From IMG/VR virus record IMGVR_UViG_2531839666_000028: a stretch of 32,520 bases of DNA. One strand, written 5' to 3'. Shown in pieces: positions 18,001-21,000 of this stretch. Within the stretch, counting starts at the first letter, position 1. Each line of letters opens with the position of its first letter. Source of the stretch: a virus. Lineage: Duplodnaviria > Heunggongvirae > Uroviricota > Caudoviricetes. Position numbers: made by a program.

Positions 18001-21000
18001 AAAGCAGGCGAAGCAGTTTTTCATGGATGTTGCTGCCGGGTTATGTGAAGGGGATGGTCCGTTGCCGGAAAAGCGCCCCGTAATTTTAGAGGCGCAGGAT
18101 GTGTTGATAACCTACAGAGGAAAACTACCGGGAATAATTACGGGTTCTCTGAAGAGTCCGCCGAAATGGTAATTTTACCAGCATATTTTTCATCCAGTAA
18201 TACAGCAAGCCGCCTGAAAGAGTCTTGTTGTTCCTGAGACCATTTGGGATTGCATGATTCAAACTGGATTGATGCCAGCGTTGATTGCATCTGTTCCCTT
18301 GGAATTGAGAATGCCAGATATGAGAAGGCGACGGTAAGGGTGTTCACGTCTTCCCGAAGCCTGGAAATGCTGTCGAGCAACTCCTGTAGAGAAATAGTGT
18401 TATTGTCCATAAATAATCCTCATGATTGTATTGACCTGTTAGCAGCCTGAGGCAACAGGCTGGAACTGATAAACATATCCAGGGCTCAGAAACCGATAAA
18501 TCCTGATAAATATCCATGAACACCAAAATCAGATACGGCCTGTCGGCTGCCGTTCTGGCGCTGATTGCCGCAGGGGCTTCTGCACCTGAAATCCTTGACC
18601 AGTTTCTGGATGAAAAGGAAGGCAACCACACAACAGCATACCGTGATGGCGCGGGTATCTGGACCATCTGTCGCGGTGCCATTCTGGTGGATAGTAAACC
18701 TGTCGTCCCGGGCATGAAGTTGTCGAAGGAGAAATGCGACCAGGTTAACGCCATTGAACGTGATAAGGCGCTGGCATGGGTGGAGAAAAACATCAAAGTG
18801 CCACTGACGGAACCCCAGAAAGCGGGGATCGCGTCATTCTGTCCTTACAACATTGGCCCCGGTAAGTGTTTTCCGTCGACGTTTTATAAACGAATTAATG
18901 CAGGTGATCGCAGGGGAGCGTGTGAGGCGATTCGCTGGTGGATTAAGGACGGTGGCAGAGACTGCCGTATTCGCTCAAACAACTGTTACGGTCAGGTATC
19001 CCGTCGCGACCAGGAGAGTGCGCTGGCGTGTTGGGGGATCGACAGGTAAGCAGAATATTTTGCTGAAAAATGAGATATGCTCACGTGGACGGATAACACG
19101 AAATCCTGCGAACTGGCAAAATGTAAGTGAATAAAAGTAAAAACCCCGTTTGTTGGCAGCAAGCGGGGTTTTGTTTTTATGGCAGTAAGCTATGGGAGGC
19201 TGCCTTGATTGATTTTAGCAAACTGATTAGGGAGTTGCGACTCATGATTAGTCAATTACCAAACTGGAAATTTTTGCTGGTCTGGAGCATCCCTTTTTTA
19301 TGGGTAGTATCCCAGTTAATTGTGGCAATTAAGGGGTAGCTATGTCAGACAAACTCATAACGCCGGCAAAGGTCCTGTGCGTGATTGTAGGTATTTCATT
19401 TTCACTAATGCTGGTTGCTCTTTTTCTGTCCCTCGCCTGGGTGATGTTGTCTTCGTCGGGGCTGCTGGGGTGACAGTGACTGATGACATCAGCAGAGCGC
19501 TGGCTTTTGCTATTAAGTGGGTGGCTGTTGGTATTGCTGTGTCTCCGATGCTGTATGGGCTGGCAAAACTGGTCATTGCGTTGAAATCGTAAACGGGGAT
19601 TAAGAGGTAATCATGTCACGCAAACTCATAATGCTGGGGGAAATCCTCTGGGTCATTGTCTGCATTTCATTTTCAGCAACGCTGATTGCTCTTCTTCTTT
19701 CTATGGCATGGATGACGTTGAATTCGGCAGGGCTGGTGGGGTGACAACGATATGAACCGGGCACTGTGTGGCGTGATTATTGTCCTGCTGGTGGCCTGTG
19801 GTGCGCTGTGGCTGGCAACAGACCATTACCGCGATAATGCCATCACCTACAAAGCGCAGCGCGATAAAAAAGCCAGAGAGCTGGAGCTGGCAAACGCAAC
19901 CATTACTGATATGCAGGTGCGCCAGCGCGATGTTGCTGCGCTCGATGCAAAATACTCGAGGGAATTAGCCGATGCGAGAGCTGAAAATGAAACTCTGCGT
20001 GCTGATGTTGCCGCTGGTCGTAAGTGCCTGCGGGTTAAAGCCACCTGTCCAGGCTCCGTGCGTGAAGCCCCCACCACCTCCGGCGTGGATAATGCAACCG
20101 GCCCCCGACTGGCAGACACCGCTGAACGGGATTATTTCACCCTCAGAGAGCGGCTGATGACGATGCAGAAGCAACTGGAAGGGGCGCAGGAATATATCCG
20201 TACTCAGTGCATTAAGTAGTCTTTTTATTATCCGGAGGATATATGAAGAAATTACTGGTAACCGTAAAGCCTTTTCAGGGAACAATTCCGTTCCGTGTTT
20301 TGCAGCCTGGTCGTGTTCTTGTTGAAGGTACGTTCAGTGGTAAATGTACGCAATCATACTCCCGGGTCTTTCGGGTGGATGCCTCGAATGAAGAGCTAAC
20401 CGTGGAGTGTGCTGTGAATGCCGCTAAATGCCGCATGGTATCGGCTGCATTACAGCCAGTGTGTTGAGCGACCTTATTATCCATGGCGCGGTATTGTCGC
20501 CGTATTCCCGTATTAACAGAGACCGCAGCCCGACAGGGAGACTCCTCTGCGCGAGTGTGCGGGGATAATCAAAAACGATACACACCGGGGTTTACCGCGT
20601 TAACGGAGCGCGGCGTTGTCCCCTCATGGTCGCTGGTCCGGTGCGATGGTGGAAGAAACCGGACTACATTAAAAATGATAACCATTATCATTTTTTGCGG
20701 GTCCTCCTGGTGGGGTGGGTATGAACACGGGGCGGGCGGCGCGGAAAAAGGCGCATTTTTTGATTTTTATGGCACCATCACCACCAGTGTAAATCATTGA
20801 TATATACCATAATAAAAATTTTTAGTGTCGAAGTTGATTGTTTTTTGTTCATCACTGGCGTGTATTTACATAATTTTCAGGGGAAGTTATGGATCGTGAA
20901 TTAAAAAATCTGCATCTGAATATTTCCCAACTGGCTGCATTATCCGGTGCTCATCGACAGACTGTCGCGGCTCGGGTAAAAAACATAAGCCCAGCCGGTG

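Follow-up and report, generated by a model that had tools for sequence, protein, structure and literature searches.

What lies between the endolysin gene R and the spanin gene Rz of a Shiga toxin (Stx)-converting prophage, and what might it do there? Lysis is the step by which Stx phages release both phage and Shiga toxin, and the usual account of the cassette responsible names S, R and Rz/Rz1, sometimes with ant. We addressed the question in the virus record IMGVR_UViG_2531839666_000028 (Caudoviricetes; 32,520 nucleotides (nt), the whole of which is called the window below), where an earlier note, made from the sequence alone, had read the roughly 700 bp separating R from Rz as an insertion carrying a terminator and two tandem, paralogous genes for membrane peptides of 43 amino acids (aa). 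The window is an Stx-converting lambdoid prophage with Q, stxAB, NanS-p, an S21-type holin, an endolysin of the signal-anchor-release (SAR) kind and Rz/Rz1, and its R–Rz gap contains four small genes, A', B1, A38 and B2, each for a single-helix protein, which belong to two or three catalogued, uncharacterised families. We are highly confident that the slot combines a conserved spacer, carrying a terminator hairpin, with four genes for single-helix inner-membrane peptides, that such an array is usual for the group, and that a recombination patch placed the B genes in tandem. The region is a functionally unexplored and very common part of the Stx-phage lysis cassette and its tandem copies are a by-product of recombination; new is the order A'-B-A38-B of the window, while the PHROG families and the RefSeq hypothetical proteins were already catalogued.

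The filled slot and its four small genes

For comparison, phage records, RefSeq genomes and IMG/VR supplied 170 loci. The spacer, the hairpin and small genes fill the R–Rz interval in all related loci for which this interval is measurable (n = 160), a count including one value of 2 nt, from a locus (L056) with duplicated R and Rz matches. Of 5426 complete E. coli genomes, 2079 (~38%) contain matches to positions 19050-19750, with a median of two per genome. With this endolysin type the slot is normally filled; what the earlier note took for an insertion is not confined to this phage, and that reading of the region is not supported. The slot types comprise A60-B (~78 loci, with intervals of 478-497 nt), A'-B-A38-A28 (~80 loci, 642 nt), ant-B (Stx2a phages including 933W), ant-A60, A60-A28 and A60-B-A38-A28, and in most related prophages a 60-aa family-A protein is encoded directly 3' of the hairpin. 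The order found in the window was absent from the 5426 complete E. coli genomes, from 50,697 phage records and from the 170 fetched loci.

Family B is encoded in 276 phage records, versus 358 carrying this endolysin at ≥80% identity, and is present yet unannotated in 933W (at 27438-27566), phi24B and Min27. At the same R–Rz position in O157, O103, O111 and other prophages, RefSeq lists hypothetical proteins such as WP_001280935.1, WP_001303555.1 and WP_042004856.1; the PHROG families involved are phrog_4906 (B), phrog_1115, phrog_3246 and phrog_4493 (A) and phrog_6632 (A'). All 103 B clusters come from E. coli, and the 122 clusters of family A from E. coli, E. marmotae and Salmonella. A scan of genome contigs with B gave no real match outside E. 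coli, the apparent ones being a single spurious match and one contig labelled Xanthomonas. The latter (L008; NZ_JPLE01000251.1) is a 328-bp piece of a Xanthomonas pisi assembly; it contains the ant-B junction found in Stx phages of E. coli and is most likely a contamination of that assembly.

Conservation of the 133 nt that follow R, with the hairpin among them, extends to all cassette types, so that the terminator was not brought by an insertion. The strong hairpin with a T-run that had been seen after the endolysin gene is well founded: it spans 19140-19172, with 15 pairs (6 of them G-C) and a 3-nt loop followed by GTTTTTATGG, is the dominant fold element of 19050-19200 (z = -3.2 versus shuffles) and is kept in 39 of 39 distinct spacer versions (160 loci), with a compensatory change at one stem pair (100/114, U-G to U-A or A-U). 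With its stem-loop and U-run, both conserved in relatives, it is by sequence a candidate intrinsic (Rho-independent) terminator; a T-run is also present on the minus strand. The promoter scan found 2 sites where 3.5 are expected by chance, and no plus-strand sigma-70-like promoter either between R and Rz or in 17400-20900; one minus-strand promoter-like site, at 19348-19319 (9/12 matches, extended -10), is at chance level. The spacer has no Rfam match (E up to 1). Its layout, with invariant ends, a variable block and a terminator, resembles that of prophage small RNAs (sRNAs), in which a variable 5' part precedes a conserved 3' part; an RNA derived from the 3'-UTR of R is conceivable, but with neither a promoter nor an Rfam match it lacks support. 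That the hairpin might be the terminator of one of the prophage sRNAs Pas, AgvB or AsxR was considered and rejected, since their published positions are between esterase and holin or beside stx, not after R.

The coordinates of these elements and of the genes around them are collected in Table 1.

Table 1. Positions in the window of the R–Rz slot, its small genes and the surrounding prophage genes
Feature	Position	Strand	Basis or remark
Conserved 133-nt non-coding spacer	19050-19182	+	Invariant ends; ~20-nt variable block (~19071-19091); hairpin with T-run
A', predicted 44-aa single-pass membrane protein	19205-19339	+	phrog_6632, E 1.3e-12; TTG start
B1, predicted 43-aa single-pass membrane peptide	19342-19473	+	phrog_4906, E 4.5e-21
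A38, predicted 38-aa membrane peptide	19476-19592	+	phrog_1115, E 3e-24; GTG start
B2, predicted 43-aa single-pass membrane peptide	19613-19744	+	phrog_4906, E 1.6e-12
Recombination patch, ~300 bp	19557-19862		Mismatch maps, interval alignment; carries B2 and the Rz transmembrane segment
Endolysin R, 177 aa, phage lysozyme	18516-19049	+	Pfam PF00959, E 2.3e-24
Rz i-spanin, mosaic	19752-20219	+	Pfam PF03245, E 3e-48; phrog_13; starts 7 nt past the B2 stop
Rz1 o-spanin, within Rz in the +1 frame	19972-20157	+	ORF list; lipobox LVVSAC, Pro-rich
S21-type (class II) pinholin ORF	17554-17823	+	Pfam PF04971 Phage_holin_2_1, E 1.9e-32; phrog_9876 and phrog_20 holin
DUF1327/YdfR	17828-18172
NanS-p esterase	15299-16915
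stxA/stxB	13119-14423
Antiterminator Q	12029-12781
cI-like repressor	3930-4622	-

Both 43-codon open reading frames (ORFs) of the earlier note hold up, each with a Shine-Dalgarno (SD) sequence (anti-SD pairing of -8.4 kcal/mol for B1 and -7.1 for B2, against a window median of -2.8 and a 5th percentile of -7.2) and one hydrophobic segment (residues 11-29; Kyte-Doolittle values of 2.9 and 2.7). Transmembrane prediction gives one helix each, and homology search places both in phrog_4906 at full length (residues 1-43 versus profile positions 7-49 of 49). The third hydrophobic mini-ORF suspected between them exists as A38, but A' brings the count to four, and the 33-codon ATG ORF at 19483-19584, considered for this place, was rejected as its frame is without purifying selection. 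A38 corresponds, residue for residue, to residues 23-60 of the common 60-aa family-A protein, the N-terminal 22 aa being absent, and its phrog_1115 match spans only profile positions 31-67 of 67; it is preceded by an SD-like GGGG (-6.0 kcal/mol). Full-length family A follows the pattern MxKYKRILLRLTMKNGLE..AFAIKWVAVGIAVSP..ALKS. Natural ATG-started 38-aa forms also exist (P0217, on 56 contigs), as do 28-aa forms, and together they show that the helix is the core unit of the family. As for the 90-aa ORF called at 19320-19592, which had been taken to read the wrong frame, this holds for the initial ~150 nt, where it runs over B1 out of frame; the final 117 nt are in the conserved family-A frame, that of A38.

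The start of the gene A' is best placed at TTG 19205, preceded by the SD sequence GGGAGG (anti-SD pairing of -10.2 kcal/mol), the alternative being the in-frame ATG 19244. The mechanical 70-aa ORF from GTG 19127 was rejected: it crosses the terminator hairpin and has no SD sequence (-1.5 kcal/mol). A' makes up the last 44 codons of that ORF, whose residues 28-69 are covered by the phrog_6632 match; it is conserved from the N-terminal motif IDFSKLIRELRL onward in relatives from Salmonella and Providencia, and its hydrophobic segment lies at residues 11-29 of the 31-aa form. A relationship between A' and family A is only suggested by hhalign (probability 43%, E 2.5e-4). At this locus mechanical ORF calls misread both starts and frames, which should serve as a warning.

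Family A is under strong purifying selection, with a ratio of non-synonymous to synonymous substitution rates (dN/dS) of 0.14 in frame versus 0.98 and 2.45 in the other frames (17 distinct alleles), and its distant relatives keep the basic N-terminus and the MKNGLE.DAP motif, together with a single helix that ends in ALKS or RWW. Family B is coding yet weakly constrained (dN/dS of 0.46 in frame versus 0.77 and 1.23 out of frame; 23 alleles); its variable sites fall on the three codon positions as 23/17/26, a weak third-position bias, and intact ORFs of 43-44 codons were found at 156 of 166 loci. Across alleles that are 58-67% identical, B keeps its length, the N-terminal MSDKLI and the VGISFS core, and its dN peaks in the C-terminal third. 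The B homologue XECs191, of 49 codons as called, is among the translated intergenic ORFs listed by ribosome profiling (RIBOseq) of O157 Sakai (PMC5597208). PHROG matches, selection and SD sequences support reading the four as real, conserved genes for small membrane proteins within the lysis cassette.

From their charge distribution the small peptides are predicted to lie in the inner membrane with the N-terminus inside. AlphaFold2 models B as a single helix (residues 3-38; predicted local distance difference test score, pLDDT, of 86) and A60 as a short N-terminal helix and a linker followed by a helix at residues 25-59 (pLDDT 75).

Origin of the tandem B copies

The earlier note had taken B1 and B2 for tandem paralogues whose divergence argued for selection. 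The two genes share 76% DNA identity over 148 nt and 58% protein identity, with a pairwise dN/dS of 0.68 and a dS of 0.40; together with the value for the family as a whole, this does not uphold the argument. The B1 allele is identical to that of the common A'-B-A38-A28 cassette, with 100% matches in 80 IMG/VR loci, and B2, the most divergent phrog_4906 allele observed, shares 99.2% DNA identity with its counterpart in the E. coli strains 2012C-4221 and CFIAFB20140388. Such matches indicate that B1 and B2 are alleles of two phage lineages and not local duplicates.

The mosaic extends beyond the genes themselves. Positions 18505-19594 follow the A'-B-A38-A28 type (O103 RM8385, like many others, is 97.8% identical over 19050-19594), and from 19557 to ~19862 the window matches the A60-B cassette of 2012C-4221 and CFIAFB20140388 (99.2% identity over 19560-19798). 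Within this patch only 5 mismatches separate the window from locus L005, with dense differences outside it; the flanks match the type of loci L004 and L006, to which Rz also returns past ~19862. The parental type therefore switches at 19557-19594 and back at ~19840-19862, the left crossover lying in the shared 3' end of the A genes and the right one in Rz, at about codons 30-37. On these alignments, a patch of ~300 bp brought in B2 and a different Rz transmembrane segment in place of A28 and the initial ~35 Rz codons, and it is because the usual fourth gene, A28, was replaced that two B copies now stand in the same array. An older junction, in which the B stop is followed by A codon 23 (ctggggtgacaGTGactgatgac), is common to the window, L004 and the intermediate L163, and predates the patch event.

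A local tandem duplication of the 43-codon gene followed by divergence under selection, which two homologous ORFs 271 nt apart and similar from 12 nt before each start could have suggested, is barely credible: each copy has its own near-perfect or perfect counterpart in a different widespread cassette, the parental type changes on both sides of B2, the dS of 0.40 is at the between-lineage level, the older junction shared with L163 and L004 was already in place, and the mismatch maps of patch versus flanks contradict a duplication in situ.

Possible functions of the peptides

Among the roles that the earlier note had listed for the peptides, lysis timing is the best-supported guess, and we tentatively favour it, at somewhat less than even probability: the peptides may be late-expressed accessory modulators of pinholin/SAR-endolysin/spanin lysis. 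They would be made only from the Q-antiterminated late transcript, along with holin, endolysin and spanin, would enter the inner membrane leaving the N-terminus on the cytoplasmic side, and would act as dispensable modulators of the timing or efficiency of lysis, the likely route being a small-xxx-small contact between their helices and the membrane-spanning segments of pinholin, SAR domain or Rz. Late expression is deduced from the absence of a promoter and from the upstream terminator; because, in addition, the small genes are packed with stop-to-start gaps of 2-20 nt, their expression is expected to depend on Q. The A helix is weakly hydrophobic (1.9), near the SAR segment of R (1.8), and both A (G41xxxS45) and B (G17xxxS21) carry a G-x-x-x-S motif, features whose functional relevance we only infer.

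The position of distant relatives is consistent with a role in lysis. Five of 11 distant family-A relatives adjoin lysis genes in differently organised phages (binomial P of 0.003 at an expectation of 10% and of 0.05 at 20%). In one of them A stands directly before Rz (L173), in another the order is endolysin, A and two lipoproteins (L180), and in a third (L191) holin, x, A, DUF3757 and Rz; in L192, A overlaps the start of a lysozyme with a hydrophobic N-terminus, and L179 has the order A, A, holin, transmembrane protein, A'-like peptide (the link to A' having an hhalign probability of 89%) and a lysozyme with a hydrophobic N-terminus. In L179 (3001-4185; JGI metagenome 3300007140) the A-like proteins measure 51 and 52 aa, the holin 59 aa and the transmembrane protein 51 aa, and the 32-aa A'-like peptide, just before the lysozyme, ends in RWW.

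There are precedents for small proteins of this kind. S21-71, P2 LysA, P1 LydB and T4 RI are dispensable membrane or membrane-associated lysis-timing proteins encoded in or near lysis cassettes, and P2 lysA also sits between the endolysin and spanin genes. A, A' and B can be likened by position to such antiholins and timing factors, membrane proteins encoded in or near lysis cassettes, but they share no sequence similarity with them, and most of those proteins are larger or have several transmembrane segments. Of antiholin-like traits, the peptides have the place in the lysis cassette and the single predicted helix, late expression being deduced as above; as members of a holin or antiholin family they have no Pfam, PHROG-lysis or NCBIfam match, and the cassette already has a PF04971 pinholin. 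A further accessory lysis-timing protein is ORF52 of Salmonella phage BSPM4 (PMC11657625). With the antiholin-type timing factors, the nearest functional precedent is the releasin of phage Mu, gp25 (DUF2730), a small non-holin membrane protein that controls the release of a SAR endolysin (PMC9239132) and is encoded a few genes from it. Releasin has 99 aa, an N-out/C-in topology and an anionic cytoplasmic domain of 73 aa (PMC9239132), whereas A, A' and B have 28-60 aa, basic N-termini (N-in), short C-termini and no DUF2730 match, and their phages already have a pinholin.

Several observations weigh against a role in lysis. Of the 11 distant A relatives, the remaining six have tail fibre, tape measure, baseplate or portal-like genes as neighbours, and neither homology nor experiment ties a single one of the three families to lysis. 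One and the same Rz transmembrane allele may be preceded by A28 or by differing B alleles, with no co-variation with the upstream small gene. In a few records with the same endolysin R abuts Rz, so that the small genes are dispensable, and their low GC content (39-43%, versus 53-59% in R and Rz) resembles that of acquired accessory DNA. Besides the weak constraint on B, 10 of the 166 B loci are frameshifted or changed in length in the C-terminal third; some of these changes are recurrent, with 7 loci sharing one allele and example alleles (IMG/VR) ending in ...LVALRLDDVVFVGDAGVRGI, and this recurrence implies that loss of the C-terminus is tolerated. Finally, the RIBOseq signal of XECs191 is weak and comes from uninduced cultures; in lysogeny broth (LB) the RNA value was 30.0 and the footprint value 12.6 reads per kilobase per million (RPKM), with a ribosomal coverage value (RCV) of 0.43 and a coverage of 0.55 (PMC5597208). 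As to searches at large, the peptides had no match in Pfam, NCBIfam, PADLOC (0 families, E up to 1) or PDB sequences, and the family-A profile retrieved only 24 small proteins from 1.84 billion representatives, with no link to a known family. The literature, searched by accession, peptide sequence, locus tag and topic, held no functional study, the listing of XECs191 being the sole direct match.

The main rival, unlikely in our view though not strongly so, is the membrane-acting exclusion that the earlier note had also named. The small peptides would then be lysogenic-conversion or superinfection-exclusion morons shielding the lysogen or the late-infected cell, for instance by blocking DNA entry or an envelope attack, and the slot would merely tolerate the DNA. 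HK97 gp15 is such a moron-encoded exclusion protein of lambdoid phages, and the small genes resemble exclusion, Bor and Lom-type morons in encoding small envelope proteins between late genes. The GC content below that of the flanking genes agrees with an acquired unit, as does the highly variable content of the slot, where ant, A, A', A28 and B occur in many combinations; the six distant relatives beside tail and baseplate genes are at typical moron sites and fit exclusion equally, and one neighbouring small protein matches a PHROG labelled 'moron ... membrane protein'. Set beside the promoter-gene-terminator layout of a moron, the array differs from its neighbours in composition, but it has no detectable promoter of its own, its terminator lies upstream and not downstream, and its genes are tightly spaced with the late genes; there is no sequence similarity to such morons and no PADLOC match, and an enrichment of relatives beside lysis genes would not be predicted. 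The RIBOseq signal in uninduced cultures, which could speak for expression in the lysogen, is at the level expected from spontaneous induction. An identity with HK97 gp15-like proteins was considered and rejected, as tblastn of a distant A relative returned only E. coli R–Rz slot genes. In L171 (325-737; JGI metagenome 3300007188) two tandem small membrane genes both end in IRWW, one of family A and the other matching a PHROG with this moron label; the pair forms a tandem array of like kind outside a lysis cassette, just upstream of an ORF cut by the contig end.

It is quite unlikely that the peptides as such are of little consequence, the ORFs (B and the truncated A38 foremost) being translated spacers that would hold ribosomes on the mRNA and couple the translation of Rz to that upstream, or else slowly decaying passengers of a recombination hot spot. 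Much of what would favour this concerns B, with its dN/dS of 0.46 overall and 0.68 between B1 and B2, its weak third-position bias and its frameshifted alleles; moreover, a small ORF always stops 1-10 nt before the Rz start, and A38 lacks the 22 N-terminal residues of A60 and starts with GTG. Such a view is hard to reconcile with the strong constraint on family A, of which the 38-residue core is exactly the conserved part, with the natural ATG-started 38-aa and 28-aa forms, with the length and motifs that B retains across divergent alleles, or with the same architecture in distant relatives from unrelated phages.

Type I toxin-antitoxin-like modules, in which hydrophobic toxic peptides would be checked by antisense RNA, were also among the earlier candidates and are very unlikely. 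The peptides are small and hydrophobic, the hairpin could terminate in both directions, a promoter-like site lies on the minus strand at 19348-19319, and the hokW-sokW unit of the Stx prophage Sp5, with its hydrophobic inner-membrane peptide, affects and aids phage release (PMC8621323). That unit is independent and has an antisense RNA; no such signals were seen at the small genes, which stand head to tail, four within one operon, with no independent promoter, no long structured 5' leader and no Rfam antisense family (E up to 1). Promoter-like sites are fewer than chance predicts, and the minus-strand -10 is not conserved in the common A60-B cassette.

Returning to lysis, a wider form of the proposal, which we consider unlikely, is that families A, A' and B constitute a new class of accessory regulators of pinholin/SAR-endolysin lysis (through SAR hold or release, pinholin triggering or spanin tuning) present in most Stx phages, and that reshuffling of the slot sets a lineage-specific lysis timing and hence when, and in what quantity, Shiga toxin and phage are released. 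Most Stx phages, and ~38% of complete E. coli genomes, carry 1-4 conserved small membrane-protein genes in a lysis cassette. If they do tune lysis, they would offer a cheap, testable handle on the timing of toxin release, and a second case, after Mu releasin, of non-holin control of a SAR endolysin; if they have no role in lysis, the locus would still illustrate clearly how short recombination patches shuffle small genes.

Neighbouring genes and RNA features of the prophage

The lysis genes on both sides of the slot are of familiar types. The N-terminal hydrophobic segment of R, LSAAVLALIAAGASAPEIL, is rich in Ala and Gly (hydropathy 1.78), follows K4 and R6 and appears typical of a SAR domain; the lysozymes of the group have been described as SAR endolysins that go together with pinholins (PMC8136144). 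The true start of the pinholin is probably inside its ORF. The embedded Rz/Rz1 layout is the same as that annotated in 933W. The window also encodes DUF826, listed between the NanS-p esterase and the S21-type holin, and has the terminase genes after Rz.

Several RNA features lie upstream. Above the Rfam gathering score, the isrK Hfq-binding RNA and a C4 antisense RNA were found in the early/replication region (5881-5957 and 5982-6069, plus strand). Two tRNA-Arg genes (anticodons tcg and tct; 12930-13096, plus strand) stand between Q and stxA, and the sRNA STnc100 (RF02076, 177.5 bits; 14511-14718, plus strand), reported to be structurally related to PasD (bioRxiv 10.64898/2026.05.13.724894), lies directly 3' of stxB. 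A terminator-like hairpin of 13 pairs with a T-rich tail (17541-17570, plus strand) is found immediately ahead of the holin ORF or at its start; the slot between esterase and holin is the described site of the prophage sRNAs PasA and PasC (bioRxiv 10.64898/2026.05.13.724894).

Two further ORFs are close to the lysis genes. Between YdfR and R, the late operon holds a 90-aa ORF in reverse orientation (18138-18410, minus strand), which shares sequence with the 3' end of YdfR. It matches phrog_2411 over its full length (E 1e-58), and PGAP calls it hypothetical in relatives. Directly after Rz, a 74-aa ORF (20243-20467, plus strand) with a strong SD sequence (-9.5 kcal/mol) matches phrog_2571, of unknown function; in 933W this post-Rz position is occupied by bor, on the opposite strand.

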